Below, piece after piece: positions 1 through 64,000 of a stretch of 64,000 bases of DNA. The DNA is taken from the IMG/VR virus record IMGVR_UViG_3300013372_001213, one strand, 5' to 3'. The notes beneath the pieces are model-generated. The model was not told the origin of the DNA. It was given only the letters and a program-made list of their open reading frames with translations, and did no database searches. This stretch comes from an uncultured virus (IMG/VR IMGVR_UViG_3300013372_001213). Taxonomy: Duplodnaviria; Heunggongvirae; Uroviricota; Caudoviricetes. The first letter of the stretch is position 1, and each line of letters starts with the position of its first letter. The position numbers were made by a program, and so were the translations under genes.

Positions 1-1
1 T

Positions 2-1333
2 AAAGACACATGGTATGGTAGAATCTGGAATACAAATGACTTTAATGAATTTGATCCTAATAATCCAAACTTTACTCCTAAAAGATATGGTGGAAACATG
101 GTATCTCAGTTCCCTACTAAACAGTATGGAGGCTTACCTACTGCACAAACTGGTAAACTAGTTAATCCAGATTCTAGTTTTTTTGTACAAAAACCAAAAA
201 CTGTTGTACCAATAACTCAACAACCAATGGCTGCAGGATTTACTCAAGCTGCTACTACATCAGCTAATTTACCATTACAAGTAAATAATCCTGATTTACA
301 ATATACTCAACCTGGAGTACTTAGTAATTTAGCAGATTTTTCATTAGAGGTTTTATCAGCACCTCAAAAACTTGCTATGTTAGCAGGTACTGGTTTGTTT
401 GGAGATGAAGCAAGATGGGAGATGCCTTCAGAAACCATCAATAGAAACAACATGAATAAATTTGGGAAACCAAAATATCCATTTACAGCTTTTATGGCTG
501 ACTTTGTAAGTCCTAATTTAGTATATGGTGCAGTTAAAGCAGGTGCTAGAGGTGCTGTAGTTGCTTTTGAAAAAGGAGTTTCACATGCAGTTTCTAGAGA
601 TGTTGCTAAAGTTGCTACTGATGCATCTTTTAAAACTTTAAAAAGTTTAAAGTTACCACAAGCAGAAGCAGAAAAAATAATAATATCTTCTGGTAGATCT
701 GTTACTCCTAAAAGAATAGCTGTAGTAACTAAAGCTTATGAAGAAGGTACTGCAAAAGCTATACAGTTAGTTAAAAAGAAACCTGCACTAGCAAATGCAC
801 CAGATGCATTAGCTACTAAAATTTCTAATACTACCTTAAAATCAGCTAGTAGAGAAAACCTTAAGCGTACTGCAAAAGATGTAAAATATGAAATAGGCCA
901 AGGAGTAGAATATGTTTATGATCAATTTGGAAATAAAATAGTTAAACCTATTGTTAAAAAAGTAAAAGAGAAATGGCCAGAAGTAGTAAATGCTGCAGAA
1001 GCTGCATATGATTTTACTAAAGGAGCAGCTCCTGTTGTAAGACCTTTAGGTCCTTCTTTTGTTAAAAATGTGCTAGCTGCTAGAGACAAGTACAATGACT
1101 GGAAACAAGTAGGTGATAATGAATATGTAAATGTAAATTATCCTGGTAAACTTTACCAGATTAATAAGGATCAAACAGCTTATGAAGAAATTGATCCTAA
1201 TGTAAAAATTATAAAAAAACCTGCTAATACAATGACACAAACATCAGATATGACTGATAAAGAAGCTTTACAATCAATAGATAGTACACAAACTGTAGAA
1301 CCAGATTTTGAGGAACTTGAAGAAATAGATTAA
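2..1333 (+). CDS. Putative virion/structural protein, 5'-truncated by the window edge
   Basis: The frame is open from position 2 into the 98..1333 ORF. It carries KRYGG/KQYGG motifs and lies in the + strand virion operon. Confidence 0.6.
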   Translation, partial: KDTWYGRIWNTNDFNEFDPNNPNFTPKRYGGNMVSQFPTKQYGGLPTAQTGKLVNPDSSFFVQKPKTVVPITQQPMAAGFTQAATTSANLPLQVNNPDLQYTQPGVLSNLADFSLEVLSAPQKLAMLAGTGLFGDEARWEMPSETINRNNMNKFGKPKYPFTAFMADFVSPNLVYGAVKAGARGAVVAFEKGVSHAVSRDVAKVATDASFKTLKSLKLPQAEAEKIIISSGRSVTPKRIAVVTKAYEEGTAKAIQLVKKKPALANAPDALATKISNTTLKSASRENLKRTAKDVKYEIGQGVEYVYDQFGNKIVKPIVKKVKEKWPEVVNAAEAAYDFTKGAAPVVRPLGPSFVKNVLAARDKYNDWKQVGDNEYVNVNYPGKLYQINKDQTAYEEIDPNVKIIKKPANTMTQTSDMTDKEALQSIDSTQTVEPDFEELEEID

Positions 1334-1344
1334 TATATTTTATT

Positions 1345-3060
1345 ATGAAAAAAAGATTAAATGTACAAACAGGATGGTGGGAACTAGTGGATGCTAATAA
1401 TAATGTTACAAATCCTCAATTTAAAAAAGCTACATCAGAACAAATTTCTGCAAAACAAACTAGATTAAAAAATAATCAACCTGCTGCAGCTGCACAACCT
1501 GCTGCAGGTAATAATACAGGTGTTATTAACAGAATAAATAAAGTTGCTGCTAGTGTATCAGGAGCACCTTATTCAACTAAACAAGCTTTTGAAAAAGTAG
1601 GAATAGATAACTTAAATAAGTTAAGAAATCAATTTAATCTTAAAGATCAAGTTCTTGAAAAAGATAAATGGTTAGCTAGTGGTGATAAAAGATTTAAAAC
1701 TTTTGAAGATTATGTAAGAAATGCTGCTGGTGAAATGCAAGCTGCAGCTGTACAACAATATCCTGAACTTGTCAAAGATTATACTGTAAATAGAGGTGTT
1801 ACACCTACTAAAAAGCTAGCACAAATATTAGGACCTAAAGGTTATGGTAGAATTATAGGAAAAGATTCATCAGGAAAGCCTATCTATGATCTTTCTAATG
1901 CTGAATTAAAAGCTGCTATGCAAGATCCTAATACAAAAGTAACAGATGAAGATATTAATGAAGGATATAAAGATTATTTATGGCACTTTAGAGGTTTAAC
2001 TTTAGAAAAAGGAAAGTTAACAAAAGATCAATATGAGAAAAAAATGAAAGAGGCTAATATTGCTAAAGGTGATAGAAAGTTTTTTTCTGATGATCCCGCC
2101 AATCCTTTTAAATATACAGAGTATGAAATGGAAGATGCTCCTGTTGCACCTCCTCCTATAGTTGAAGATGATAAAAAGATTGCTAAAACAGATGATAAAG
2201 TTGTTGAAGATGAGAAAAGAAAAGCTTTTGAAACTAATACTCCTACTAACTATAACCTTCCAGAGAATGGTCCTTGGTGGTTACAAGATATTATTAAAAC
2301 TGCAGGTGCTGCTTCAGATTTAGGTAGAATTAAAAAATATTTACCTTATCAAGCTACTCCTCAAGTAAGATTACCAGATGCTACATTTTATGATCCTACA
2401 AGAGAAGCAGCAGCTATTACTGAACAAGCTAATTTAGCTTCCCAAGCTCAGCAAGCTTTTGTTAACCCTCAACAATTAGCTGCAGCTAATAGTGTAAGTC
2501 AAGGTCAAACTGCTAAAGCAATGGCTGATACTTTTGGTAGATATAACAACCTAAATGTAGGATTAGCTAACCAGTTATCTCAAGAAAGAACTAATATCAT
2601 GAATACAGCTTCTCAAAATAAAGCTAATCTTGATACTCAGTTATGGGATAAGTATACTATTGCAAACCAACAGTTTGATAATAGCAAAGCTAAAGCTAGA
2701 GAAAACTTAAGAGGTTCTTATATTGATGCTATTACTAATAGAGCTAACACAGCTAACTTAAATAGCTTATATCCTGAATATAATGTAGATCCATCAAGAG
2801 GAGGTTTTATTAACTTTAATCCAAATGCTGCTAAGATAAAATCTGCTGATAAATATAGTTATATGGATACATTATGGTCAAAAGCAAAAGTAATGGACCC
2901 TAAAGATCCTCAAGGTATGATGAAAATATTATTAAGTAAAGGTGCTAGTGACCCTCAAGAAGATGCATATAATGAGTATTATAATAGACTTAAAAAAATG
3001 AATGAAAGAGGGTGGAATGATTCTAAAAAATCTCAAGAAACTCAAGAAACTGAAGAATAA
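1345..3060 (+). CDS. Putative virion cargo/ejection protein (571 aa)
   Basis: Long ORF with an A/Q/N-rich helical C-terminal half and no Cys, upstream of the giant cargo genes. Confidence 0.55.
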   Translation: MKKRLNVQTGWWELVDANNNVTNPQFKKATSEQISAKQTRLKNNQPAAAAQPAAGNNTGVINRINKVAASVSGAPYSTKQAFEKVGIDNLNKLRNQFNLKDQVLEKDKWLASGDKRFKTFEDYVRNAAGEMQAAAVQQYPELVKDYTVNRGVTPTKKLAQILGPKGYGRIIGKDSSGKPIYDLSNAELKAAMQDPNTKVTDEDINEGYKDYLWHFRGLTLEKGKLTKDQYEKKMKEANIAKGDRKFFSDDPANPFKYTEYEMEDAPVAPPPIVEDDKKIAKTDDKVVEDEKRKAFETNTPTNYNLPENGPWWLQDIIKTAGAASDLGRIKKYLPYQATPQVRLPDATFYDPTREAAAITEQANLASQAQQAFVNPQQLAAANSVSQGQTAKAMADTFGRYNNLNVGLANQLSQERTNIMNTASQNKANLDTQLWDKYTIANQQFDNSKAKARENLRGSYIDAITNRANTANLNSLYPEYNVDPSRGGFINFNPNAAKIKSADKYSYMDTLWSKAKVMDPKDPQGMMKILLSKGASDPQEDAYNEYYNRLKKMNERGWNDSKKSQETQETEE

Positions 3061-3132
3061 ACACCAAATAAACTTTAAAAGTGTATTACTACCTCAAATA
3101 AATTTTGTATATTTAAAACATAATATTTTACT

Positions 3133-5955
3133 ATGGCTACCTACATAAATGGCGTTACAGACTACATTCCTCAAATACAACCTTTTAGACCTGACTATAA
3201 TTTTTTAGGTAACATCTTACAAACAAGACAAACAAGATATGATGCTGCTAAAAAACAGGTTAGTGAATTATATGGTTCTTTATTAAATAGCCCTTTAAGT
3301 AGAGATGGTAATATTAAAAGAAGAGATGAGTTTTTTAAAGTCATTGATAATGATATTAAAAAAATATCTGGGTTGGATTTATCCCTACAGCAAAATGTAG
3401 AACAAGCAGAGAATGTATTCAAAGGATTCTATGAGGATAAGCACATGGTATCTGACATGGTTAAAACTAAAAACCATAGAAATGAACTAGAAAAAGGAGA
3501 GAATTCTAAAAACTGTTATGATCAAGATAAATGTGGAGGTCTTTATAATGATCTTTCTATAAGAAAACTTCAATATAAAATGGAAGAATATAAAGCATTA
3601 TCTGATGATGAAGCTTATAATTTTGACATGGGTTCATATGATCCATTATATATTTGGCAAAAAGATGCTATTAAAGAAGCAAAGGCTTCAGGAATGAGTG
3701 TTACTAAAGATAAAATAAGTGGTGCCTATATTGTTAGAGATAAAAATGGTAAGCTTTTAGAAAATGGTCTTTATAATTTATTTGATCAATTATATAGCAG
3801 TGATCCTAGAGTTGCCTCTAACTATGATACTAAAGCATATGTTACTAGAAAAGAGGGTGTAAAAGCTTTATTACCTAAATATAATAATGATGAGAAAGAA
3901 GCTGAAAGAGCTTACATCACAGAGGCAATGAATCAAGGTATTAAAAGTTTAAATAAAAACTTAGAAATTAGTACTAATAATTTTGATCAATTAAATGGTA
4001 GACAAATAGAACTTGAAAATAAAAAAGGTGCTATAACTGATAAAGAAAAAGCAGAGCTAGAGGAAATTAAACAAACTAAAGATAGAGTAACTACTACTAA
4101 AAATAATATTCAATCAAAGATTGATAATATTAAAAATAACATGGATGAAGGTAATATGGTAGCTTTAATTAATAAAGCTGACCAATCTAAATCTGCTTAT
4201 TTTCAAGATTATGATTTAGATAAAATGGCTGAATCATTATCAATGAAGAATCAAGAAAGTATTATTGTTAAAGCTGATGAGATATACATGGCTAAATTAA
4301 ACAATGCTCTTGCTAAAGATTTAGAAAGATATAAAAATGATTTAGGTAAAGTAAGAGATGTTATTAAAAATCAACTTGATATGAAGCTAAAGGCTTTTGA
4401 AAAGTCTCTTGAAGGAAATGTTTCAGTAGAAAAAGGAGAACCACAAGTAGTTGCTGGCACACCGGGTAATACTGCAGATTTACATCTTAAAGAACATCCT
4501 GAAGGTGCTTATATGTTAAATAAAGAAAGTTCCACAAAAGGTTTTGTAGAAGTAAATAAAGATTCTGTTCCTATATTATTTAGTTTATTTAAAGCAGCTA
4601 AAGAAGCAGCTAAAAATGAAAATACAGGAAAAGGTGCTATTCAATATTTAAATAAAACTTATGGTAAAGGTAAGTGGGAGAATATGGAAAAAATAGAACA
4701 AGTTTCTTCTTTCTTTAAAAATAAATATGGAACTAATATTGGCTATTCAAGACTACTTGAGTCTAAAAAATTTATAAATGATAACCCAAATACTAGTTGG
4801 GGTAAAACTGTATTAACTAATAGTAATGCTCAATTAGCAAAATTAACTATAAAAAATAAAGCAAGTAATGCTGAAATAGAACTTTTTAAAGAAGGTCTTG
4901 CAAAAACTGTTTCAAAAGTAGGAAATACAAGTGATCCTGATTATGGTCTTGCAAAACATTTAGTTAATCAAAATGGTGAATTAGATTATGATGATAAACC
5001 AAGTGCGGCATTTATAAAGGCTTACTTAAAAAACAGACCTAGTGGTGATGAAGGTGATATTCAAGATGCTTTTGAAAAAGTAAAAAAAGAAGTTTTTAGA
5101 GTATATAATAGAACTGCAGGTACAAGTTTTGGACAAATAACTGAGATACCAGGTATAGAAGGTTCTGGAGGAGTTACAGGACATGCTATTCAATATAATG
5201 CAGTAGATTCTGCTGATGGTTTGTATCATGGTACAGATGTTAATAAAGAAGTATCTAGTACTATAAATCAAGCATTTGCTAATCCTGGAAAAGTTAAAAT
5301 GGTACTTGGAGATCTTAGTGCTACAAACTTTAATAAAAAACAAACACCTGAAGAAGAAGAGGGAGTTAGAGCTTTTTTTAGACAGTTTTATATAGACATG
5401 AAAAAATCTGATAAAAAAGATGATAAAAGACCTATCTATAGTTTATTAGCTCAAAATATAGCTGGAGATGATATTGCTCAAAGTGGTTTTACAATTATAC
5501 CTTCTCAAGCCTATATTCAAGAATATTATGCTAAAAATGAAAAGACTCCTGGACTAGTTGATCCTAGTATACTTATGACAGGAGCTTCTATATTTTATGA
5601 TAATAAAGTTATTAAAACTGATTTTACTAAAGCCTTAAATATAACTGATGTAGAAAAAATTCTTTCAAAAAAAGGATCATTAGTTATTGATGAATATAAA
5701 GAAAATGGTGGAACTTTAAACATAAATTATGATGAGTCAACAGGAGTGACATCATTTCAGCCAGTTTATGTTGTAAATACTGATAATGGTATGGTAGATT
5801 ATAAAGGTGAAACTACATATATTTCAGATATTAAAAATGCAAATGCACAAGTTGAAAAATATCTTCAAGGTTTTGAAACAAATAAAAATACAAATCTTAG
5901 AATAGATGAGGCTAATAGATTAAAAAATCAAGCAAATCAACCTAAACAAAAATAA
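3133..5955 (+). CDS. Putative virion cargo/ejection protein (940 aa)
   Basis: Long coiled-coil-rich ORF in the crAss-like cargo gene order; its only Cys form an internal CxxxxxC pair (KNCYDQDKCGG). Confidence 0.55.
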   Translation: MATYINGVTDYIPQIQPFRPDYNFLGNILQTRQTRYDAAKKQVSELYGSLLNSPLSRDGNIKRRDEFFKVIDNDIKKISGLDLSLQQNVEQAENVFKGFYEDKHMVSDMVKTKNHRNELEKGENSKNCYDQDKCGGLYNDLSIRKLQYKMEEYKALSDDEAYNFDMGSYDPLYIWQKDAIKEAKASGMSVTKDKISGAYIVRDKNGKLLENGLYNLFDQLYSSDPRVASNYDTKAYVTRKEGVKALLPKYNNDEKEAERAYITEAMNQGIKSLNKNLEISTNNFDQLNGRQIELENKKGAITDKEKAELEEIKQTKDRVTTTKNNIQSKIDNIKNNMDEGNMVALINKADQSKSAYFQDYDLDKMAESLSMKNQESIIVKADEIYMAKLNNALAKDLERYKNDLGKVRDVIKNQLDMKLKAFEKSLEGNVSVEKGEPQVVAGTPGNTADLHLKEHPEGAYMLNKESSTKGFVEVNKDSVPILFSLFKAAKEAAKNENTGKGAIQYLNKTYGKGKWENMEKIEQVSSFFKNKYGTNIGYSRLLESKKFINDNPNTSWGKTVLTNSNAQLAKLTIKNKASNAEIELFKEGLAKTVSKVGNTSDPDYGLAKHLVNQNGELDYDDKPSAAFIKAYLKNRPSGDEGDIQDAFEKVKKEVFRVYNRTAGTSFGQITEIPGIEGSGGVTGHAIQYNAVDSADGLYHGTDVNKEVSSTINQAFANPGKVKMVLGDLSATNFNKKQTPEEEEGVRAFFRQFYIDMKKSDKKDDKRPIYSLLAQNIAGDDIAQSGFTIIPSQAYIQEYYAKNEKTPGLVDPSILMTGASIFYDNKVIKTDFTKALNITDVEKILSKKGSLVIDEYKENGGTLNINYDESTGVTSFQPVYVVNTDNGMVDYKGETTYISDIKNANAQVEKYLQGFETNKNTNLRIDEANRLKNQANQPKQK

Positions 5956-5956
5956 A

Positions 5957-8900
5957 ATGGCAGAAGAAAGTATTTCTCAAGAAGCTGAATTAGATAAAGG
6001 AACTCCTGATTTTCAACAACTCAATAATCAAGCAATTAATGATATAAATGCTATTGAGACTTCCTTAAATTTGCCAGCCAGACCTTTTGCTATAGATGCA
6101 TATCAAAATGTAGCAGGTAATCCTCTTACAGGAAGTAACCCTGGATCTAGAGATCCAAATAATACATTTGATTTTATTAAAAGTTTAGATTCTAGTGTAG
6201 CTGCTGATACTACTGCAGAAAGTAATATATTGGGTGCAATGAGACCCTTTACTTATAATGGAGATTATGATGGGGCTAAGTTTGATAGATACCATTCTTC
6301 AGGTGCTGTTTATGATAAATTAGGTTTTTCTCCCTACAGAGATAATGAGGCTTTGTATAATGATAAGATGACCTTTGGTGATCAGTTTGTAAGAGCTGCT
6401 AAGCAATGGGATGATATGGTAGGTGTTGGTTTTATGTCAGGAATTAGATCTTGGAAAACAATGTTTACTGATCCATTAGCTCCAGATATTGAAGGAGCTA
6501 GAGATATGGAAAGAATCATGACCAATGCAGGTTCTACTACAGGAGGTATTGGTGGATTTTTTACAAACACTTTTTTAAATTCTGGATATACTGTTGGTAT
6601 AGGTTTAAATTTCTTAGGAGAAGAGTTAGCCTTAATGGGAGCTACTGCTCTTACTGGTGGTGTATTAGGAGCTGCTAATGTTCCTACAATTGTAGGTAGA
6701 GGGTTGAATGCTGTTAATAAATTAGTTGAAGGAGGTAAAGCTGCTTTTACAGGTTCTAAAGAAATGCAAGGTATCAGACAAATGGGTAATACCATTCCTG
6801 AAATGAAAACTTGGTGGAACTCTGTTGGACAAGGTGCTAGAGGTTTTGTAAAAGGTACAGCAAATATATTAAACCCATTAGACCAAACTATTGATGCATT
6901 AAGAGCTACTGATTATGCTACAAATTATGCCAAGGTTGCTAAAACTTTTGGTGCATTTGCAGATGATATGTTAATGATGAAAGGTTCTGTATCTGAAGCA
7001 AAGCTTGAAGGAGGTATGGTTAAAATTAATTTAACTGATGATCTTATTAATGCATATAGAGCAAAAGAAGGAAAAGAACCAGATGCAAAAGCAATGACTG
7101 ATATTGAAACTCAGGTTGATAAAGAAGCTTATAATGTTGCATTATGGAATTTACCTGCTATCAATACTACTAATAAATTAATGTATGCTACAGTATTCTC
7201 TCCATTAAAAAATATTATGGGTAAAGAAGGAGCTATTAAAGCAGTTGATGATTATATTTTTAGTAATAAAACATTTTCTTTATTAGGGGATGATTTGATG
7301 TCTAAAGGTAAAGCAGCATTAAAATCTTTTAAGAATCCTAAATTTTATGGGCAATTTGGTATGAACTATCTTAAAGCCAATCTTGCAGAAGGTGTTCAAG
7401 AAAATTTACAAGATGTTATTTCTAAAGCTGCTTCTGAACATGCAATGGCTTTATATACTAATCCTATTAGAGCTGCTTATGAAGGTTATATGCCTCATGT
7501 ATTAAAAGGATTTAATGATCAGTTTTCTGCACAAGGAGCTGAAACATTTGCTGGTGGAGTTGCTATGGGTTTATTTGCTGGGCCGGCAATGGGAGCAGTA
7601 TCTGTATCTATGAGTAAATTAATTAAAGCCTTTGGTACTAAAGAATATGAAGCTCTTGAAAAATTACAAAAAGAAGTTAAGTTAAAAAATGTAGAACATC
7701 TTAATTACTTGTATCAAAATGATATTCTTTTATTAGCACCAGATTTTGAAAACTCAGTAAGGACAGGTAATCTAGCTAATGATTTATATTCAGCTGCTAA
7801 AAATGGAAATAAAAAAGAAGCTCTTGATGCATTACAAGGTATTACAGATAACTACTTATTAACAGGTCTTCAGACTGGAAAAATTGATATTATAATAGAT
7901 AAGATAAAACAATATAAAAATTTAAGTAGAGAAGAACTTGTTGAAGCTTTTAGTAAATATGGTATCAAAGAAACAGATGTTGATAAAGCTTTAAGTAAAA
8001 TTGATGGTATTGTTGATAGAGCAGAACAACTTAAAAAAGATTATGCTGAAGTAGCTGAAAAATATCCTAGTCCTTTTAATCCTGCTAAGTTTTTACCAGG
8101 AACTTCAGAAAGAAGAGCTGCTGAAGTAGCCCAAAAAGCTTGGAAAACTGCTACTTATAATTTAGTATTTGCAAGAGCTACTTATACTGCTCATAGTAAA
8201 AGAGTTGCTGAAGTGGCTCAGATATTCTCAGGTATTTCTAATGACCTGGCTAAATCTGATGCTCAAAACTTAATGACATTACTTAGCCCTACATCAACTG
8301 CTTTTGAAATAACTACATTAAAAAGAGAGATAGCAGTATTAGATGAGTCTAACCCTGAACAAAAAAAGGTTAAAGTAGAAAAAACTAAACAGTTAGAAAA
8401 AGTAAGTGCTTTTTATGAAGCTGTAAAAGCTATTAAAGATGCTAAGAATAATGATGAAACACTTTCAGCAGAAGCTAATGCTAAAAAAGCTTTTGGAGAA
8501 TATGTTAAATTCCTAGCTAAAAAGAATGATAACATTGTATTCAATGAAGATATAAACAAGGCTTATAGTGTAGTTAAGGATTACATGAGTCTTAAGGATG
8601 ATATGAAGGGTCTTGCTGAAAGCATTAATGTATTAATGACTCCAGAAAACTTCTTTCAATTTCATACTAGATTAAATGAAGCTTATAAAAACATTGTTAA
8701 TAATAAGGGAGAGATTATTGAGGCTAATCAAAATTTAATTGAAAAAATTAAAAATATTCAAGCTTTTACTAATTTAGTTACTGATGAATCAGGCCTTACT
8801 GTACCAAATGAACTTGTAGAGGCTTATCTTAATGCTTTAGAATCAGGTGGAGAAATGCCTGTCCCTACTGCTTTTAAAAATCTTTTAGGAGAAGATGTAA

Positions 8901-54019: not shown

Positions 54020-54082
54020 GATTTTTGTTTTTTAAATTGTTAATTGTTAATTGATTGTTTTGAGTCTTGATTAATTAAATGC

Positions 54083-54109: not shown

Positions 54110-54144
54110 CAACATATAAACATTAGTGTGATCAGTACTTATGT

Positions 54145-54444: not shown

Positions 54445-54445
54445 T

Positions 54446-54682
54446 TTAAATCAAATTAAAGATTTTCATAAATAGTATAATTGTTACTACACCTATTCCA
54501 ACCCATAACTTAGTTTGCTTTTGTTTTAAAGATACTATATCTTCTTTTAATTCTCCAACAGTATCTTCATACTTGTCTAGGTATACAAACTTCCTCTTTT
54601 TCTTAAAAGGGATTCTTTCTTCACTTGAGTCTATTGGGTTATCCCAATGTACAGACTGTGCTTTCTCATCTCTTGGTGCCAT
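54446..54682 (-). CDS. Small membrane protein (C-terminal transmembrane helix)
   Basis: LWVGIGVVTIILFM. Confidence 0.6.
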   Translation of the reverse strand: MAPRDEKAQSVHWDNPIDSSEERIPFKKKRKFVYLDKYEDTVGELKEDIVSLKQKQTKLWVGIGVVTIILFMKIFNLI

Positions 54683-54711
54683 TTTAATTCTTTTTTACAA
54701 ATATACAGAAA

Positions 54712-55200: not shown

Positions 55201-55390
55201 CTTCTTTTGGTTTAGTGATTTCTAATAATTTATTAGTTTCATCTCTTAATTTCATATACTCATAAGTAGAATCTCCTTCAGAATTTGTAGCACCTATTTT
55301 ATTCTTAATCATATCAAGTTCTATATCCTTAATGTTTTGAATTAGTTTCTTTATATAATCTTTCTTACTATAATTTTCTAAATCTATCAT
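55190..55390 (-). CDS. Hypothetical protein (66 aa)
   Basis: Tightly packed ORF. Confidence 0.55.
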   Translation of the reverse strand: MIDLENYSKKDYIKKLIQNIKDIELDMIKNKIGATNSEGDSTYEYMKLRDETNKLLEITKPKEDGT

Positions 55391-55668
55391 GCTAGTTCTT
55401 TTGCTTCAAATTTGTTAATATACTCTTTCATTTCTTCAAGATATTTATAGGTAGAGGAATCCTCAATTTCTCCAGTCAATAATCCTCCTGCTACAAGCTT
55501 CTTGTGTAGTTCTCTATACTGTTTAAATAATAATTTTACAGTAACTAAAGCATTCTTCTTGGCATTGTTCATATCATACTGAGCATAGGTCTTATAGTTC
55601 TCAATATAATGTAATCTCATGATATCATGAGCTTGTTCTGTAGCTGTTAATACTTTGTTAAGTTCCAT
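55387..55668 (-). CDS. Hypothetical protein (93 aa)
   Basis: Tightly packed ORF. Confidence 0.6.
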   Translation of the reverse strand: MELNKVLTATEQAHDIMRLHYIENYKTYAQYDMNNAKKNALVTVKLLFKQYRELHKKLVAGGLLTGEIEDSSTYKYLEEMKEYINKFEAKELA

Positions 55669-55678
55669 AATTTAAGTT

Positions 55679-55933
55679 TTAAATTTCATCATCTGCTTCT
55701 CTAAGCATTCTTAACATCTTATCTCTTTCTTCAATAGACTCTAGTCTACCTTTATTTAATTCAATGATACATTCACCACCAAGTTCTAAATCTAACTCAA
55801 TCTCATCTAATAGTTTGATTATATTGTTTAATTTACTTGCCAATGGCTTTGTACTTGTTTGCTCACTTAATCTTTTGTGAACATACTTTGCAGCTTCTTT
55901 ATCCTGCACTAGTTTTTTTAGATTTACATTCAT
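55679..55933 (-). CDS. Hypothetical protein (84 aa)
   Basis: ORF. Confidence 0.6.
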   Translation of the reverse strand: MNVNLKKLVQDKEAAKYVHKRLSEQTSTKPLASKLNNIIKLLDEIELDLELGGECIIELNKGRLESIEERDKMLRMLREADDEI

Positions 55934-55947
55934 AATTATTAGGTTAG

Positions 55948-56021
55948 TGATTCTGCTTGGAGTCGAACCAAGGGCCTACAGCTTAGAAGGCTGTTGCTCT
56001 ATCCAGCTGAGCTACAGAATC
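55948..56021 (-). tRNA. tRNA-Arg (anticodon UCU), no encoded CCA
   Basis: Acceptor stem GATTCTG/CAGAATC, D arm TAGCTCAGCTGGATAGAGC, anticodon arm ACAGC-CTTCTAA-GCTGT and T arm CTTGG-TTCGACT-CCAAG. Confidence 0.95.
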
Positions 56022-56274
56022 AATGTATTAAGTGAAAAGCCATTACACAAAAAGGTACATGACTACCTACCAAATAATAGCTTAACACTCAATAAGGTCT
56101 GGGTGTGCAAATAGTGAAAACTATCATATAAACTCTACCTGCCTTTTTACACCCAGAATGCTTTTTAATAATCTTTTACCATAATAAGATTTTACAAATA
56201 TATTATATTTTCTCAAATGTTCTAGTTGTACTCTCTTATAATATGGGGTTGCCACAGTGGTTCTCTCTACTGAT

Positions 56275-56652
56275 TTAACCATGATAAAAATGTCTATACA
56301 TAATAACAGCTATTATAGTAAAACCTGTTATTGAATCCATTATAACAATATTAAGAGTTTGTTGAGGAGTAGCATTTTTCTTAAAAATCCATGATAAACA
56401 TGCTACTATAAATAAAAGTATAAATAATATAAATTGACTAGAAGCTATCATACCAATAAATGCCCAAATAGTGTAGAAAAATCCTACTAATATTAAAGGT
56501 TTAAGGGTAATTAAACTTCCATTTTCCATATCACTTCTTTTACAAGCATCTACTAAATCAGCAGGGTTGATAGCTACATAAGCTTCATATACAAGGAATA
56601 CTATTCCTATTAAAAAATATACTGTTACCATTTTCCTGAGTTTGTTATACAA
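56275..56652 (-). CDS. Multi-pass membrane protein
   Basis: Three to four hydrophobic segments. Confidence 0.65.
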   Translation of the reverse strand: MYNKLRKMVTVYFLIGIVFLVYEAYVAINPADLVDACKRSDMENGSLITLKPLILVGFFYTIWAFIGMIASSQFILFILLFIVACLSWIFKKNATPQQTLNIVIMDSITGFTIIAVIMYRHFYHG

Positions 56653-56858
56653 TACTTACTACCTACATGGGCATTCATCCAATCAGCTGAACTAAGAGTA
56701 AAGGTTTTGTTTGCACCACTACACTCATTCTTGATTACTACTGAGTAATCTTGTACATTATCTGATTGTACTATACCACAATTACATGGTCCTTCTTTTT
56801 CTTTCTTGCAGGAGCTAATTAAAGCTACAACTGCTATTGCTAATACTATTTTTTTCAT
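56625..56858 (-). CDS. Small lipoprotein with a Bacteroidota-type signal
   Basis: MKKIVLAIAVVALISS-C-KKE lipobox and four further Cys. Confidence 0.75.
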   Translation of the reverse strand: MKKIVLAIAVVALISSCKKEKEGPCNCGIVQSDNVQDYSVVIKNECSGANKTFTLSSADWMNAHVGSKYCITNSGKW

Positions 56859-56859
56859 C

Positions 56860-57102
56860 TTATTTGTTTTTAAAGTTCATAGGTATACTCCTTAATACTT
56901 GGTCAGGATGGCTCATAGGATAAATCACTTTCATCTTATCAAATATACTAGCTTTTTCTAGCTCATTACCTAAAGTAATACTAGCTTTTATAAGCAACAT
57001 TCTTTCTTGCTTTGCTGCTTGATTTAGTTGATGATACTGACCATGAAACTTGTCTATATCTTCTATGTAATTTCTTACAAAAATCTTTACTTGCTGGGTC
57101 AT
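56860..57102 (-). CDS. Hypothetical protein (80 aa)
   Basis: ORF. Confidence 0.55.
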   Translation of the reverse strand: MTQQVKIFVRNYIEDIDKFHGQYHQLNQAAKQERMLLIKASITLGNELEKASIFDKMKVIYPMSHPDQVLRSIPMNFKNK

Positions 57103-57135
57103 CTTATTTGTTTTTACAGATTTCTATTAGTTTAT

Positions 57136-57780
57136 CTATTCTTTATATTTCCAAATATATCCTCCTGCTGATTTATTTTTACCTAAACAACATTTAGATA
57201 TGGAACCACAATCTATATTGAGTTGTCTTGATGCTTCTCTTGCAGACTCAAACTCTTGTATTAAATTGTTCTCTAAGTCATATTGACCTACTTTTTTTCT
57301 AAGCTTTATAGCACATTTTTTTCTTTCTTCTAAATCTTCATACCTTTTTTTATGACCTTCTGTATTAGTATATTTACCTCTTTTTACACCTGTCATTGCT
57401 TTAGATATTGCTTTTTTTTCTTCATTACTTCTTTTTCTGCCAAGCAAAGCATTTTTTATTTTACTCTTAGTAGAATCATTATGACCAACTCCTTCACCTC
57501 CTTCTGATAAATTACACAAGTTATTATTAGCATAATAAGAAATCCAATATTTTTCTCTTTCTGCCCAATTATCTGTGCATTCTTCTATGATTTCCATTAC
57601 CGGAAGCATGCTATTAGAAATTAGTTTAAGTATCCAAGAAGCTAGTTTTTTGCTACCTGTTTTTTCTAAACACTTTTTACTTTTATGTTGAGCAAATCTT
57701 CTTTTTATATTATTAGTCTTGCCAACATATTTTATTTTAAAAGTTTCAGGATGTCTAAGTATGTATATGTATGTTTTCAT
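57136..57780 (-). mobile_element. Free-standing GIY-YIG homing endonuclease with NUMOD3-like and NUMOD1/IENR1-like DNA-binding modules
   Basis: YIYIL...YVGKT...RRFAQH...EREKYWI...NLSEGGEG; repeats of KSKIKNALLG/KKAISKAMTG; VGQYDL...FESAREA...ISKCC.GK.KSAGGYIWKY. Confidence 0.85.
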
Positions 57781-57799
57781 ACTATATACACTACAAAAA

Positions 57800-58159
57800 C
57801 TATACCAACAAGTGTTTAGATGACACTTTGTATATCAACTCTTTTAATAAACTATCTTGAGTTTCTTTATCTAAAGGCATTATACCATCTTTGATATCAA
57901 GTTTATAATATAACCATCTAAATGCTTGTTGATAAAGTGGTATAGCAGCATTATAAGGTATAGGATCATCTCCATTTTCAGCAGCATCTTCATTACATTC
58001 ATCAGTAAGTTTATCTAATTCTGTATTTGTTATACCATCATCAGCATATTCAATTAAAATTTTACCATCTGCATAATAGTCTGAAGCCATGCAAGGTTCA
58101 TTAAACCCTAACTCTTTAAGAGCTACTGCTTGGGTATAGTTAATAAACTCATTTTCCAT
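57800..58159 (-). CDS. Hypothetical phage protein (ALKELGFNEPC...PLYQQAFRW family)
   Basis: ORF. Confidence 0.65.
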   Translation of the reverse strand: MENEFINYTQAVALKELGFNEPCMASDYYADGKILIEYADDGITNTELDKLTDECNEDAAENGDDPIPYNAAIPLYQQAFRWLYYKLDIKDGIMPLDKETQDSLLKELIYKVSSKHLLV

Positions 58160-58274
58160 TGTCTATAGGTTTAGGTGTACATACATGACCATCACTCCAC
58201 TTGATTCCTGGAGGAGGTGTTAATTCTGGTGAGCTGTACTTGGTACCACACTCACTACATATAAATTTATTCAT
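58149..58274 (-). CDS. Small Zn-finger-like protein (41 aa; not in the track)
   Basis: MNKFICSECGTKY...GHVC. Confidence 0.55.
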   Translation of the reverse strand: MNKFICSECGTKYSSPELTPPPGIKWSDGHVCTPKPIDNGK

Positions 58275-58395
58275 CTTTTTTATTTTTCTTTTTAGTACCG
58301 CCATCTGTAAGCATGCCCCAAACTATCACTACAAATAATGATATAAATATTATAGGCATTATTACATAGACTCCTATTGCTCCCATTGTATGCAT
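58267..58395 (-). CDS. Small membrane protein (42 aa; not in the track)
   Basis: Hydrophobic helix followed by a basic tail; overlaps the next ATG. Confidence 0.5.
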   Translation of the reverse strand: MHTMGAIGVYVIMPIIFISLFVVIVWGMLTDGGTKKKNKKDE

Positions 58396-58396
58396 A

Positions 58397-58672
58397 TTAG
58401 TCTTGTTTGTTTGATTTAATAAATACTTTTAATGTTTTTCCATCATCTTGGTAAGATAATTCTAAATGACAATTATATAAAGAGTTTTTAACATATACTC
58501 TGCCATTTTCATCAATAACTTCAAACCTTGTTACTTTTGAAATATCAGCCATATCTTCTTGGCATTGTAAATAGCCTTTGGTAAAACCACAATATTCACT
58601 GGCAATTTCTTTAGAGCCAGAATCTTTACAAACTTCTAAATAAATTTTATCTATTTCTTCTTTAGTTTTCAT
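58397..58672 (-). CDS. Small hypothetical protein, MKTKEEI paralog A
   Basis: Shares its start, a QCQE motif and the NKQD end with 59787..60023. Confidence 0.65.
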   Translation of the reverse strand: MKTKEEIDKIYLEVCKDSGSKEIASEYCGFTKGYLQCQEDMADISKVTRFEVIDENGRVYVKNSLYNCHLELSYQDDGKTLKVFIKSNKQD

Positions 58673-58678
58673 GTTATT
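58650..58678. repeat. 29-nt exact direct repeat (second copy at 60001-60029)
   Basis: TCTATTTCTTCTTTAGTTTTCATGTTATT at both positions. Confidence 0.9.
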
Positions 58679-58691
58679 CTTGTTTGTTTAG

Positions 58692-58916
58692 TTAAACTTT
58701 TTCCACATCTTTGCTAATTAATTGGTCAAGAAAATTAGCAGCAGCTTTATTAGCAACTTCATGCACAATTTCATTGTCATGCTTATGACCTGAAAAATAA
58801 AACGCATCTTTAAAAGCCATAGCAATATTAGCTTCCCAACCAATTCTGTAACTTTTGTCATTTATAATTTCTACACAAACTCTATTGATTGCATCATTTA
58901 AATTTACTTTTTCCAT
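58692..58916 (-). CDS. Hypothetical protein (74 aa)
   Basis: ORF. Confidence 0.6.
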   Translation of the reverse strand: MEKVNLNDAINRVCVEIINDKSYRIGWEANIAMAFKDAFYFSGHKHDNEIVHEVANKAAANFLDQLISKDVEKV

Positions 58917-58937
58917 TTTTTTATTTGTTTTTAGTTG

Positions 58938-59192
58938 TTAATCTTGTTCAAGTTCACTATCTACATTTCTATTACATTTTGGGCACCAATAGCCACCAAA
59001 TACTCCAGGCACAAATTCTTTATCAAGGTGTAAACAAATTTCTTGCTTATAAGCATCAATAATCTGTTGCTTTTCCATTTCTTTGGCTTTTTCAAGTAAT
59101 GGTTTCATTTGTGCAAAAGTTAATGAGTTACCACTCTGTTGTTCATATTCATAAAGTTTTTTAATAAGCCATTCTACTGCTGTTTGTTTCAT
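58938..59192 (-). CDS. Hypothetical protein (MKQTAVEWL...AKEMEKQQIIDAY family with a CxxC tail)
   Basis: ORF. Confidence 0.65.
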   Translation of the reverse strand: MKQTAVEWLIKKLYEYEQQSGNSLTFAQMKPLLEKAKEMEKQQIIDAYKQEICLHLDKEFVPGVFGGYWCPKCNRNVDSELEQD

Positions 59193-59199
59193 ATTAGTC

Positions 59200-59562
59200 T
59201 TATTTTTTTATTAGTTTAAATACTTTATAAGATTCAAGCTCTGCCCATGTAATAATCTCTTCCTCTTGATATAAATCATTATCATGTAAATCAATAGATA
59301 GGTGCATCATCTCATGCATAACTAAACCAAATGTTTTTATATCATCAGTACACCTGCTTAGATTTATAAACACAAATTGTTTACCATCAATAGGTGATAC
59401 ATTAGATAAGCCTGCTATATAAGCATCTTCAGTAGTGTTGTTATAATTCTCACAATCCTCAAGGTTGAGGCCATGCATTTCTGTTACCTTGTAAAACTTA
59501 AACACATCACAAGGATCATGACTAAGGATTAAGGTGTATAATGTAAAGCTAAATATTTTCAT
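59200..59562 (-). CDS. Small HExxH zincin-like protein
   Basis: VMHEMMH followed by EE. Confidence 0.6.
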   Translation of the reverse strand: MKIFSFTLYTLILSHDPCDVFKFYKVTEMHGLNLEDCENYNNTTEDAYIAGLSNVSPIDGKQFVFINLSRCTDDIKTFGLVMHEMMHLSIDLHDNDLYQEEEIITWAELESYKVFKLIKK

Positions 59563-59785
59563 TGTCTTGTTTGTTTAGTAAATTAATATATTGTTCAGCA
59601 GTTATGTTATCATCTCTGTCTCCATAAGAACTTCTTATGTCATAACCACTATCAAAAGCTTTCTTCATATCTTCCTCTGTATATTTCTTAACAGGAACAT
59701 AATATTGTGTAGTGCCACCATTTACTTTACATTCACTATTACAAGTTGGGCAATGTGTTATTGATTTTATTGTTATATCTTCCAT
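59549..59785 (-). CDS. Hypothetical protein (CxxC; KKYTEEDMKKAF motif)
   Basis: ORF. Confidence 0.6.
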   Translation of the reverse strand: MEDITIKSITHCPTCNSECKVNGGTTQYYVPVKKYTEEDMKKAFDSGYDIRSSYGDRDDNITAEQYINLLNKQDNENI

Positions 59786-59786
59786 A

Positions 59787-60023
59787 TTAGTCTTGTTTGT
59801 TTAGTGAGTTATTATTTATAGCATATAAGTTTACTTGAGCATAACCATCTATGTCATACCAAGTATTTTTTCTAATGTCTTCCCTTAATTGTTCAAGTTC
59901 TTTAGCCATTTCTTCTTGGCATTGGGTGTAGCCCTCAATATATCCACAATAAACATAGTGATCACCAGTATTGTCTTCTATATATTGCTCAGCTAACTGT
60001 TCTATTTCTTCTTTAGTTTTCAT
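59787..60023 (-). CDS. Small hypothetical protein, MKTKEEI paralog B
   Basis: See paralog A. Confidence 0.65.
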   Translation of the reverse strand: MKTKEEIEQLAEQYIEDNTGDHYVYCGYIEGYTQCQEEMAKELEQLREDIRKNTWYDIDGYAQVNLYAINNNSLNKQD

Positions 60024-60147
60024 GTTATTAGTTATAAATAAATGAATATAACCAACCTGTGTTGGCCAATTGTAACTGGATTAAATCCATATAAATCTTT
60101 TCTTCTCTTGTATACATAATTAAAGTTTTAAAGTTTATAAATTATTT

Positions 60148-60411
60148 TTATACTTTTAAGTAATAGTTATAAGTTTTACCAGTCTTCTGACTAGTCTTAA
60201 TTATAAATAACTTACCTGTTTTAGATTTGTATACAGGATGTTGTTTTCCTTTAGCATCTGTAAAAGTCTTGCCGGTAGAGATAGCCTCTGATTTCCTAGA
60301 ACCTTGTGGTTTCTCTACTAACACATAATTACCTGAAGCATCTTGTTTAACAGTCTGTGAATAACTGATAGTAGATAGACCTACTAGAATTACTAAAATT
60401 ACTTTTTTCAT
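60148..60411 (-). CDS. Small secreted basic protein (likely start MKKVIL, 87 aa)
   Basis: Signal peptide MKKVILVILVGLSTISYS-Q. Confidence 0.65.
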   Translation of the reverse strand: MKKVILVILVGLSTISYSQTVKQDASGNYVLVEKPQGSRKSEAISTGKTFTDAKGKQHPVYKSKTGKLFIIKTSQKTGKTYNYYLKV

Positions 60412-60439
60412 GTTTTTTGGGTTTAGATTGTTAATTATT

Positions 60440-60619
60440 TTAAGATTCTTGTACTTCTCCCCCATCATATTTATCCTGGGGGAGTTGGACATTGCTTTCA
60501 TAGTACTCTTGTTCTTCTAAATACCTTTCTATAAAATAAGAATCAGGTAAATGTTGATAGAGACTATTTCTAAGTATCAGCTCTTGTTTAAGCTGAAACA
60601 CTTCTTTCATTTTTCCCAT
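60440..60619 (-). CDS. Small hypothetical protein (59 aa, MGKMKEVF; not in the track)
   Basis: ORF preceded by an A-rich leader. Confidence 0.55.
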   Translation of the reverse strand: MGKMKEVFQLKQELILRNSLYQHLPDSYFIERYLEEQEYYESNVQLPQDKYDGGEVQES

Positions 60620-60651
60620 GTTATTTATAAAGTTGATTAAAAGTTAAAAGT

Positions 60652-60963
60652 CACCTAGTAAAAAGGTTGAATAGTCTAAAATAAAATTAATGATAAAGCC
60701 AAAGACCTCTCTCTGTGTTCAAAGGCAAAGATAAAAACTAAGTCTTGTTATGTATCCTCACAGAGCTGTGCTCTGGTTTGTATGAGGTGCTGCCAGTTTT
60801 CTCCATAGAGTAACCTGTCAAGCCATTGGTATCTTTTGTGAAAAGACCCTACAAAACTAGTGTTTAAATTTTACAGAGAAAGCGGTTTGTGTACCCTAAG
60901 GTACTTTTATATAATTTATAAATTTTATATTTTTAGATTTTTTGAGAACCTTCTTACCAGGTA
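60652..60963 (-). ncRNA. Putative ~310-nt structured non-coding RNA
   Basis: 17-bp closing helix (3 G.U), 10-bp CUUUCUCUGU/ACAGAGAGAG helix and several nested hairpins; no ORF. Confidence 0.65.
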
Positions 60964-60967
60964 TAAA

Positions 60968-61002
60968 GAGTAAGAGAATCAGCTTATGCCTATCTCTTAC
61001 TC
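60968..61002 (-). other. 10-bp hairpin between the coiled-coil gene and the ncRNA
   Basis: GAGTAAGAGA/TCTCTTACTC; could be a terminator or a processing stem. Confidence 0.6.
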
Positions 61003-61015
61003 ACCTTTGAATATG

Positions 61016-61936
61016 TTAGGATTCAGAATCCAAGCTCTTTAAGAAGAGATTTATGGTATCCTGAAAACGAGAATCTATAGAGATTCTTAGAGTACTAGCC
61101 TGTTGAATTCTTGTCTGTCTCTCAGACTCAAAATTCTCATATGCCACCTTCACAGCCTCTTGATGAGTGCTCATTAAGTTAGAGTAATCTAATCTCAACT
61201 TTTGGTTGATTTGATTAATCTCTGCTCCCTTAATAGCATTCTCCTTAGAGATGCGAGCATTTTCCTCAGTAACCAAGTTCTTAACCTTGGCTTTGAAGTA
61301 ATTTACTCTCTGCTCATAAGACCTATGCAAAGAAGCTAACTTCTCATGGTAGCCTAATAGCTGCTCTGAGGTATGATGAGCTTCTACCTTCACAGGGGTC
61401 TTTATACCAGAAGATAACTCAATGAAGTCTAAGACTTTCACATTAGGTAAATCTCTTCTAAGAACATCCAATGGACAATTCTTGTGAATAAACTGCCCTA
61501 TGTGAGAAGCAAAAGACTCTTGCTCAAGGTACTCAGAGTACTCTGCTTGGCTAAGCTGTTCCCAACCCCAATCTTCTCCTACTAACTCTTGATTCTCAAA
61601 AGTTGAATAAGTAGGTTGTTCTGGGGCTACTAAGGAAGTAACAAACCTTTCCTTTTTGATAAAGGTAATCAAGGCATCTTTAGCCTTAATGTTACTCATC
61701 AAGAAAGCTTGGGCTGCATGCAACTTACCTTTCTCTACCAATAGCTCTACCACATTAGTAGGAATGGCTTTTCCTACCTGCAACATATACTCATCTCCAT
61801 TAGACTTAAAAGTCTTAGATGCATTATTAATACCAGTAATGATATTATTAATCTCAGATGCTCTCTGATTACATAAGTTAGAGATACTAGCTGCTTGACT
61901 TAAAGATAATCCTGTGTTTTGTAAATTATTTTTCAT
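61016..61936 (-). CDS. Coiled-coil protein of unknown function (likely start MKNNLQ, 306 aa)
   Basis: GLSLSQAASISNLCNQRA N-terminus and a long helical C-terminal half. Confidence 0.8.
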   Translation of the reverse strand: MKNNLQNTGLSLSQAASISNLCNQRASEINNIITGINNASKTFKSNGDEYMLQVGKAIPTNVVELLVEKGKLHAAQAFLMSNIKAKDALITFIKKERFVTSLVAPEQPTYSTFENQELVGEDWGWEQLSQAEYSEYLEQESFASHIGQFIHKNCPLDVLRRDLPNVKVLDFIELSSGIKTPVKVEAHHTSEQLLGYHEKLASLHRSYEQRVNYFKAKVKNLVTEENARISKENAIKGAEINQINQKLRLDYSNLMSTHQEAVKVAYENFESERQTRIQQASTLRISIDSRFQDTINLFLKSLDSES

Positions 61937-62102
61937 AATCTTTCTAATAGGTTGCCTATACACCTTGAGGTTTTAGTTTATGTGTTTGATTTGATTTTTG
62001 ATTTGATTCCATTCTTTAGGTAGACTAGCTCTAAGCTAATCTACCACAGTGAATGTTACTGGTGGGTTCTTACGAATGAAGTATACCCACAAAACCTTAT
62101 GC

Positions 62103-62157
62103 ATTGCCTATATTTATTTCTAGGTATTTCGTCTCCTATAAGACTCATCAGGGCAAT
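62103..62157 (-). ncRNA. Hammerhead ribozyme (type I topology)
   Basis: AUUGCC-CUGAUGA-GUCU(UAUAGG)AGAC-GAAA-UA...UAUA-GGCAAU: complete catalytic core with stem I (6 bp), stem II (4-5 bp) and a short stem III. Confidence 0.8.
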
Positions 62158-62432
62158 TAGATTAGACCATAATCTTCAGGATTCTCCAACATATTCATGC
62201 CCATATAGTAGGCTACTTGTTGGTTGATATCATTAATTGCCTTATCTTGTAAAGCAACTAACTCTTCTCTGATTCTTGTGGTTAGTATGAGGTCACCTGT
62301 ATTCATAAATCCTTTTCTTAGGACAGTACCAACAGGTGGTATCTCAATTTGGTAAAGGTCAGCATCATGCTGTATACCTAAACATTTAAGAGCAGTGATA
62401 GCTCTAACTGTTGCATCTTTAAAATCTTCCAT
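62157..62432 (-). CDS. Hypothetical early protein (likely start MEDFKD, 91 aa)
   Basis: The upstream extension in the track overlaps a structured element. Confidence 0.6.
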   Translation of the reverse strand: MEDFKDATVRAITALKCLGIQHDADLYQIEIPPVGTVLRKGFMNTGDLILTTRIREELVALQDKAINDINQQVAYYMGMNMLENPEDYGLI

Positions 62433-62473
62433 TTCTTTTGAGTTGGTTTTTAGATTGGTTAAACTTATATAAA

Positions 62474-62733
62474 TTATCCTAAGCACTTGGTTGTAACCTG
62501 TGTTTGTTATACAGGAAGTCATTGCTTTTATATAGCATTTACAACCTTGTGCATTAGGAATTTAAATCTATACTCTTTCTTTGTTCTTTGGTATGTATTG
62601 ATTAGTATTTCACCAGTTTTATCCTAAGCACTTGGCTATAATTGCCTATACAGATTAATTTCTGTAGGATAGGTTTCATATACCACGCTTGGTATACTAC
62701 TTTTTTACAATCATAGCCTTGTGCATTAGGAAT
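62474..62733 (-). repeat. Two tandem structured elements (62474-62561 and 62619-62733) with identical 17-nt arms
   Basis: TTATCCTAAGCACTTGG and CCTTGTGCATTAGGAAT each occur twice and pair with one another. Confidence 0.8.
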
Positions 62734-62734
62734 G

Positions 62735-63046
62735 TTATTCATACCCTTGATTATCAGGGATATTTTCTCCATGAAAGTCATCATATTCTTTTAACTTTTC
62801 AGGAGATATAGTAGCTCTATGCTCTTTAATCTGTTTTTCTAATGAACAGATAAGAGCTCTTTGTTCATCAACCCACCATCTATATTCAAGATTTTCTTGA
62901 TAACTATCAGATACATCTTCTATATCTTCCGAAGATAACTGAGGCGGTCCTGTCATTATTAACTCTGATATAGCTGTGCTTAATTCAGAGTTTAATCCAT
63001 CTAACCAAGTTAGTGGGTGTGATTCAGCTGTGATTTCTATTTCCAT
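62735..63046 (-). CDS. Hypothetical acidic early protein (103 aa)
   Basis: ORF. Confidence 0.6.
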   Translation of the reverse strand: MEIEITAESHPLTWLDGLNSELSTAISELIMTGPPQLSSEDIEDVSDSYQENLEYRWWVDEQRALICSLEKQIKEHRATISPEKLKEYDDFHGENIPDNQGYE

Positions 63047-63082
63047 TTTTTTTAATTGGTTTTTGGGTTGGTTAGTATTATA

Positions 63083-63160
63083 TTACTTATCTCCTATATT
63101 AGGCATAAAGATAGATTCATCATCTTGCCATATATAGTCTTCTAAATATTCTTCATCCAT
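63083..63160 (-). CDS. Very small acidic ORF (25 aa)
   Basis: MDEEYLEDYIWQDDESIFMPNIGDK fills the gap, with an A-rich leader. Confidence 0.35.
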   Translation of the reverse strand: MDEEYLEDYIWQDDESIFMPNIGDK

Positions 63161-63171
63161 TGTTTTAAGAT

Positions 63172-63363
63172 TTAAAGGGTTTTTAACTGTTTTTTTAAAA
63201 ATTCATAGTACAATGTCTTTGGTATGAAGTAGGCTGAGTTACCAAACTTAGCAAAGTCTGCTAAGCTTGTATGTTTATCAAACCAAGGTTCATCCATAAT
63301 TTCCTGAGTTTCAGGCCATTGAACTAATACATATTCAAAATGTGTTGGGTCATCTACTTGCAT
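63172..63363 (-). CDS. Hypothetical early protein (63 aa)
   Basis: YVLVQWPETQEIMDEPWF...GNSAYFIP. Confidence 0.65.
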   Translation of the reverse strand: MQVDDPTHFEYVLVQWPETQEIMDEPWFDKHTSLADFAKFGNSAYFIPKTLYYEFLKKQLKTL

Positions 63364-64000
63364 AGTTTATAATTTAAAAGATTAGTATTCAGTAAATTGT
63401 TATAACAAGACAGGAGTTAGTTCAGAGGTTTGGTAGAGATAGTATAATGACTATTCATTGTTAACCCAATTAGATGAGTTTAACCCTATGGAACATAACT
63501 AACTCAAGGTGTCTTATTATAAATTTCAAAGCTGCGGTTTCTCTCCTATTGACACATCTATATATAGTATCCTATATAGTAATAGATATAATAGTAAAGA
63601 TAGTAATAGTATAGGAGAGAGATATGGGGTATAAGTCTTTAGCTATATTAACCCCTGTTGAAGACTGAATGTATTAATTTGAGGGTTATATGTTGGTAAT
63701 GAAGGAGTTAGAGGTAGGACAGTCCCACTCAATGACCCTTTCTTTTATATATTTTGGGTATAATTACCTTTAATGTTGGTTATCCTACCCACCCTTATAG
63801 TCTCTTTATACCTATATATATAGTATAATACCCTATATAGTATATAAGATAACATTTATAGGTAGAGACATATACCATCAAAGACTTAACTAACTGATAA
63901 TCAGCACTAGACCTGATACCCCTTCGGGGCTTAGTATCAATTATCTACATATATAGTATATAGTAAAGTGCTACTTGTCCACCGGTGGGAGACAAACCTA

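Follow-up and report, generated by a model that had tools for sequence, protein, structure and literature searches.

Why a phage genome should have lost nearly every CG dinucleotide, and why many of the few survivors should lie in CCGG, is the question raised by a stretch of 64,000 nucleotides from the uncultured virus IMGVR_UViG_3300013372_001213 (Caudoviricetes), which is referred to in its entirety as the window. Exact counting yields 49 CG in 64,000 bases, while about 1425 are expected (GC content 29.8%; observed/expected ratio of CG, rho, 0.034). Hence, about 97% of CG is gone, a loss of about 30-fold that affects genes and spacers alike, and the original prediction, which had put about 50 CG counted by eye against more than 1000 expected, proves accurate. 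Neither gapped C-N(k)-G pairs nor GC depart much from expectation. At codon junctions (NNC|GNN), 12 CG are seen, whereas 200 synonymous shuffles average 375 and never fall under 332; non-coding DNA of the window holds 11 CG where 140 are expected, and CGN is used in only 12 of 590 arginine codons. Since the loss is present in every codon frame and in the spacers, it is not a codon effect; it is far beyond chance and codon choice, with CG strongly depressed and CCGG enriched among CG contexts.

The loss is likewise not confined to defined 4-8 bp sites, as would apply to Type II avoidance. All nine duplex CG contexts other than CCGG, most of them non-palindromic, display observed/expected ratios of 0.00-0.09 in the window, in line with the earlier claim that they are almost erased, while CG-free sites are hardly reduced (GATC 0.68, GGCC 0.98, CCWGG 0.97). 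It is therefore highly improbable that ordinary restriction sites (TCGA, GCGC, ACGT, CCGC and others), stacked in a variable host population, sum to the CG loss, even though avoidance is described as common in virulent phages (PMC12707154) and relatives with zero CCGG, treated below, resemble classical avoidance. With restriction-site avoidance as known from published work (Rusinov et al. 2018, PMC6286503; PMC12707154) the window shares the silent, selected loss of a short word, and the zero-CCGG relatives fit this scheme. The difference is that the window loses a dinucleotide in nearly all contexts whereas the palindrome CCGG survives. The main text of PMC6286503 uses neither 'CpG' nor 'CG dinucleotide'.

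CCGG accounts for 18 of the 49 CG, all of them at exactly the coordinates given by the original prediction, while 1.4 are expected from the flanking dinucleotides (probability of at least 18, 7e-16). The sites occur in all frames (8 in codon positions 2-3, 5 at junctions, 4 in positions 1-2 and 1 in non-coding DNA), and G follows 8 of 9 proline CCG codons just as C precedes 4 of 5 arginine CGG codons. The observed/expected ratio of CCGG is 0.57 by base composition, i.e. within two-fold as originally claimed, and 0.44 by flanking dinucleotides. The exemption is partial, however, reaching 0.42 and 0.70 of codon-aware expectation. A choice between CCGG and CCWGG in Pro-Gly was rejected as explanation, as the window does not avoid CCWGG and Pro-Gly underlies only one of eight CCG-G cases. 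CCGG is also near 2 in the unpurged phages B124-14 and csAssE-Sib.

Sparing is not restricted to the palindrome either. Half-sites, in which just one strand reads CCG, also survive in part in the window, and terms for them improve on a 'CCGG only' description (nested test, p = 0.01 for the window and 2e-7 when pooled with close relatives). In relative G008, a per-strand product leaves a deviance of 14.6 on 6 degrees of freedom compared to 364 for 'CCGG plus uniform rest', while the window is fitted by a product plus floor with weights of 0.66 for C, 0.10 for G and about 0.01 for A/T (deviance 12.9 on 5 degrees of freedom). A silent C at NXC|GY is set by both X and Y, and approximately symmetrically between the strands: in G008, strand-mate contexts are near-equal (ACGG 0.40 and CCGT 0.46) or equal (ACGA 0.05 and TCGT 0.05).

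The window is part of an uncultured lake phage of the crAss-like, ~120-kb type. It comprises giant proteins on the plus strand followed by a minus-strand block (PolB, exonuclease, primase, DnaB, UNG, helicase). Genes outside the window are deduced from relatives: the syntenic relative G016 holds the Pfam families Crass_capsid, crAss_MUZ and CrAss_Ring_1/2, all outside the window's range, and complete relatives measure 119-122 kb. Identity to named phages amounts to 27% for the capsid and 20-27% for the terminase. Close strains come from runs on lake water, freshwater and sediment, with part of the window contained in 20 of 24 listed rows; pressure of the TLR9 type was dropped, as the window's strains derive from lake and sediment runs.

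Comparison with related phages, as the original prediction had suggested, reveals that nearly all are CG-poor, while the flank context varies from CCGG-enriched through zero to inverted. Among 24 PolB loci of relatives, 22 display a rho of 0.03-0.37, and two distant ones (31% identity) reach 0.49 and 0.59. The nearest records (G001, G017, G002 and G016) have a rho of 0.026-0.045 with CCGG as highest context in all four; G008, G005 and G019 combine a rho of 0.16-0.30 with CCGG at 1.4-2.5 and intermediate values for half-sites; and G006 contains zero CCGG in 110 kb. In a sister clade (L173-L177, L181-L194 and L207), the rule is reversed: YCGR is avoided and RCGY kept, with CCGG at 0 (175 kb), CCGA and TCGA at 0.01, ACGC at 0.97 and ACGT at 0.73, accompanied by a loss of TA (0.72) and an excess of TG (1.35). 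This clade forms its own branch in primase, DnaB and nuclease trees, so that flank preference flips in step with phage phylogeny. In a side listing, L156 is grouped with it as well.

Beyond the family, 18-50 kb per genome, and nearly all of crAss001, were compared. The Bacteroides phages crAss001, DAC15 and Bc03 are purged as deeply as the window (rho 0.029, 0.022 and 0.037), while crAss002 (0.69) and B124-14 (1.17) are not; Cellulophaga baltica phages stand at 0.32, 0.44, 0.70 and 0.83, samples of Suoliviridae and Intestiviridae at 0.66-0.96 and Flavobacterium phage FPSV-S30 at 0.068. Given this roughly 50-fold spread among phages of one host genus, CG depth follows the phage lineage. The Steigviridae crAss001, DAC15 and Bc03 resemble the window in CG depth (0.022-0.037), in AG above TG and in the presence of a family-1 uracil-DNA glycosylase (UNG). 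They differ in CCGG, which stands at 0.14, 0.06 and 0.00, respectively; moreover, crAss001 avoids CCWGG (0.05), unlike the window, and the polymerase of these phages is a different one. crAss001 is in fact nearly devoid of GATC, GGCC, CTAG and CCWGG, a classical restriction-site avoidance unlike that of the window.

The CG loss is most likely due to selection rather than to mutation. A mutational origin, in which methylated or deaminated CG decays to TG/CA and Vsr-type repair restores CCGG, is very unlikely, because no TG/CA excess accompanies the loss: TG/CA lies under expectation in the window and in crAss001, DAC15 and Bc03, and relative to quasi-independence TG is 0.89 and AG 1.12 in the window, with similar values in those three phages. 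Accordingly, the earlier inference of a system that targets CG in general but is blind to CCGG stands as far as a general pressure sparing CCGG beyond codon choice is concerned, but not in its suggestion that CG is mutated. In two of the three codon classes, four-fold sites preceding G have the lowest T/A, nor are NCN codons rich in A (0.60 vs 0.78). If a mutator were at work on the opposite strand, it would alter an amino acid and leave C at NXC|GY, so that selection on duplex sites appears simpler. Strain variants agree, albeit as a weak test with rows chosen by support from contigs of four runs: among 40 listed of 1358, 20 introduce C or G and none of these creates a CG (p ~0.04), and two of the 40 remove a CG of the window. 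Two observations nominally in favour of mutation are ambiguous, since the TG excess of the inverted clade (1.18 against quasi-independence) goes along with its TA loss, and differences between the window and G001 at CG are mostly TG or CA, but transitions dominate anyway. Vsr-type repair of CCGG was rejected, as no footprint was found: a CCAG/CTGG deficit does not track the CCGG excess in 30 groups (p = 0.93).

A further point for mutation is UNG, which co-occurs with most purged genomes: it was matched in 17 of 33, among them FPSV-S30 and each of the four Steigviridae. It was not found, however, in the purged G240, G242 and G245, and yet is present in phi14:2 (rho 0.44) and G224 (0.5). The window's UNG carries the GQDxY, Phe, Asn and His motifs, with Ala at the position of the intercalating Leu. 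Phage copies compared with it lie at L056:7860-8543, L156:2552-3259 and L289:7699-8367, and active-site motifs are degenerate in G012, L156 and phi14:2 (rho 0.12-0.44). A UNG of altered specificity was rejected, since key residues are canonical and the degenerate copies span this range of rho. In Mollicutes, CpG loss is tied to CpG methylases (M.SssI, M.MpeI). Both cases combine severe CG depletion with an AT-rich prokaryotic genome, but the window differs in having no TG/CA gain and in that no C5 methylase (PF00145) was found in 21 related phage records, four of them at least 90% complete. An N6/N4 methylase was rejected as cause, as it occurs in one of 21 relatives and is closest to adenine methylases; it carries a DIPY motif and lies at L037:9482-10315 in the closest relative, G001.

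Alternatively, the error spectrum of the phage polymerase could be held responsible, as the trait is inherited along phage lineages. This is barely credible, since the same extreme is reached with PolB in the window and with DNA polymerase I in crAss001, the pattern is unchanged in G019 despite its divergent PolB (43%, other genes 63-77%), and polymerase distance is uncorrelated with pattern (rho -0.02, n = 8). The G019 PolB (L018-L020, L049) reaches its 43% in the best segment and is also longer, pointing to a replaced or interrupted gene.

In the mechanism proposed here, purifying selection on double-stranded DNA would strip CG through silent changes. As the genetic code needs CG for no amino acid, CG would be cheap to lose in an AT-rich genome. 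The selecting agent would read CG plus one neighbouring base on each strand, with A/G/T-C-G as target and C-C-G as poor target, so that only the palindrome CCGG would be without a good target on both strands. Tentatively, this agent may be a short-motif nickase made by the phage itself for host DNA breakdown and acting in every cycle, with the phage genome being protected by absence of the motif and not by base modification. On a wider scale, several lytic Bacteroidota lineages including gut crAss001 might tell self from host by a dinucleotide alone, using a CG nickase and a wholly recoded genome, with a flank specificity that drifted from one sub-clade to another, CCG being spared in the window and RCG in the sister clade; this generalization is possible but doubtful.

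The window encodes two stand-alone core nucleases that are candidates for such an agent. The first is a GIY-YIG protein conserved in the window's family and the sister clade, with GF-Y and Y-G motifs, E111, N128 and N130 invariant in 27 sequences. No sequence match to it was found in the PDB, EndoII included; its fold matches I-TevI (Z 7.1, root-mean-square deviation (rmsd) 3.1, 82 aligned residues) and T4 EndoII (Z 4.9, rmsd 3.9, 84 aligned). The second is a zinc-ribbon and HNH protein, and for neither of them did fold searches return a match with E below 0.001. Homologs of the GIY-YIG protein lie close to nrdB in syn9 and B3. PHROG 447, whose label 'NAD synthetase' recurs in many cyanophage records, is a family of stand-alone GIY-YIG nucleases matched by 445 phage records. 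Next to the GIY-YIG gene, strain contigs either skip 41056-41307, i.e. a whole 85-residue open reading frame (41054-41311), or carry 195 different letters at 40924 (40924-40930).

The closest known parallel is T4 endonuclease II (EndoII; denA; PDB 2WSH), described as a small stand-alone GIY-YIG nickase by which degradation of the host DNA is initiated (PMC2764454). The window protein resembles it in size and fold class, but it has no sequence match to EndoII, I-TevI outscores EndoII as fold match, and T4 shields its own DNA with hydroxymethyl-C, unlike the motif absence proposed for the window.

Several observations weigh against a phage-made nickase. According to PMC2764454, EndoII itself conserves one C:G base pair and not a CG step. 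The GIY-YIG family (PF19835), matched in 23 of 51 genomes, was not found in the purged crAss001 (rho 0.029) and G240/G242/G245 (0.14-0.27) and is present despite normal CG in phiM12 (1.34), Moby (0.96) and ACP17 (1.0); as its presence does not track CG loss, it was rejected as a universal cause. The zinc-HNH protein occurs in 11 of 33 genomes, all within the window's family, and neither candidate was found in the Steigviridae crAss001, DAC15 and Bc03. Nuclease alleles mirror the genome tree, so that their match with the inverted clade counts as a single event, a Mantel-type test of gene distance against pattern distance singled out no gene, and no nuclease is common to all purged phages in the families surveyed. 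A PD-(D/E)XK exonuclease (34271-35278) was rejected, as it is also found in unpurged Suoliviridae (20 of 33 genomes); its Mantel value of 0.56 rests on few genomes (n = 8) and was not counted. The strand-product model fits less well in G005, G019 and G012 (deviance 38-50), and CCGG exceeds a product fitted on non-palindromes in the window (18 vs 2.2), G005 (107 vs 26), G019 (149 vs 60) and G008 (100 vs 73), a surplus reflecting either a threshold at which either strand suffices or a true palindrome bonus. Finally, the order of contexts, CCGG high and TCGA/GCGA low, recurs in unrelated Bacteroidota phages including the unpurged B124-14, which points to the host.

CCGG surpasses the prediction from half-sites 8-fold in the window, and by a factor of 2.5-4 in G005 and G019, which leaves room for the original explanation that a host methylase of the HpaII/MspI type marks CCGG and thereby shields it from a general CG-directed system. 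Among 61 Chitinophagaceae genomes, one was found to carry an HpaII-family endonuclease, as did the control, B. thetaiotaomicron, and C5 methylases were found in 101 of 201. Nevertheless, this explanation is distinctly unlikely: half-sites are no substrate for such an enzyme but are likewise spared, and in a graded fashion; the 21 related phage records hold no C5 methylase; G006 and the inverted clade lack CCGG altogether; and the general CG system would be left without explanation. In the zero-CCGG relatives, a host CCGG system may remove the site instead of protecting it. Methyl-directed CG restriction is known from McrA, Mrr and PsuGI (BB5mCGD; PMC12707154), and YCGR is given as a type IV site of McrA type (PMC6286503). 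A CG core with one-base flank rules is shared with these systems, and the inverted clade avoids exactly YCGR; however, they depend on methylation of the phage DNA, no gene for which was detected, and the window's rule is the opposite.

The CG loss and its shared context order might instead be due to an enzyme of the Bacteroidota hosts, either a nuclease or a damage enzyme that reads CG, triggered only by certain lytic lineages in the manner of abortive infection and escaped by phages without CG; the host's own CG would then need no protection. Such an enzyme is conceivable, though with considerable doubt. It would explain why the order is alike across the differing gene sets of the window's family, the G242 group and crAss001, with a mild version in B124-14, csAssE-Sib and immuto, why no phage gene tracks the trait, and why DNA of a candidate host retains CG. 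On the other hand, the 50-fold spread within one host genus requires lineage-specific triggering, no such enzyme has been identified, and the host link consists of one contig in one metagenome-assembled genome (MAG). This 117,852-base contig (L064 of G022; 64% PolB identity) is binned in a Chitinophagaceae MAG whose sampled contigs have a GC content of 46%, differing from that of the phage, and a CG rho of 0.64. It is a weak hint to Chitinophagaceae as host and probably a binning passenger.

The features discussed are compiled below. Within the window, the stretch 56001-64000 holds 12 of the 31 non-CCGG CG, and in crAss001 CG is likewise more frequent at 83-103 kb. The window, G001 and L161, each of them deeply purged, carry tRNA-Arg(TCT), which was not found in the complete, less purged G008, G012 and G019. 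In the 4520-residue protein, an AlkB-like 2OG-Fe(II) domain lies at about 3580-3720 and a DprA-like domain at 4078-4268.

Features of the window, with positions counted from its first nucleotide
Feature	Position	Strand	Remarks
CG-purged crAss-like phage DNA	1..64000	.	49 CG, rho 0.034; crAss Pfam families in relative G016
18 CCGG sites, tolerated context	4462..63985	.	4462, 7583, 10211, 17941, 23252, 23384, 32283, 34135, 38323
CCGG sites, rest of the 18	40127, 42089, 45573, 49744, 52699, 52789, 57600, 60272, 63982		
Giant protein (4520 residues), AlkB-like and DprA-like domains	11140..24702	+	Profile of crAss-like virion proteins (probable)
Family B DNA polymerase	31226..33175	-	Marker for finding relatives
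Stand-alone GIY-YIG nuclease (139 residues), candidate 1	40505..40924	-	Pfam SegE_GIY-YIG; PHROG 447
Family-1 uracil-DNA glycosylase (UNG)	46351..47067	-	Best co-occurrence with purge, imperfect
Core Zn-ribbon and HNH nuclease (137 residues), candidate 2	52438..52851	-	GVE2 HNH endonuclease as closest fold, weak match (E 0.18)
tRNA-Arg(TCT)	55947..56021	-	Reads AGA, 514 of 590 Arg codons; sole CG in T loop
Small-gene end, purge weaker	56001..64000	.	rho 0.077 vs 0.028 elsewhere; binomial p = 2e-4

The literature searched, which covered few subscription papers, yielded no account of CG loss among crAss-like phages; new are the inverted sister clade, the contrasts within one host, the finding that CCGG exceeds the strand-product model and the testing of three candidate genes. 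A 30-fold loss of a dinucleotide without deamination footprint implies a strong and constant selective agent. As the cultured phages crAss001, DAC15 and Bc03 are purged equally deeply and crAss002 and B124-14 offer natural controls, the matter can be tested at the bench, while sub-clades with differing flank rules provide a comparative handle on the causal gene. Whether of phage or host origin, the agent would be an enzyme that cuts or damages DNA at a target of two to three bases and, depending on that origin, would represent either a new mode of discriminating self from non-self or a new defence of Bacteroidota.

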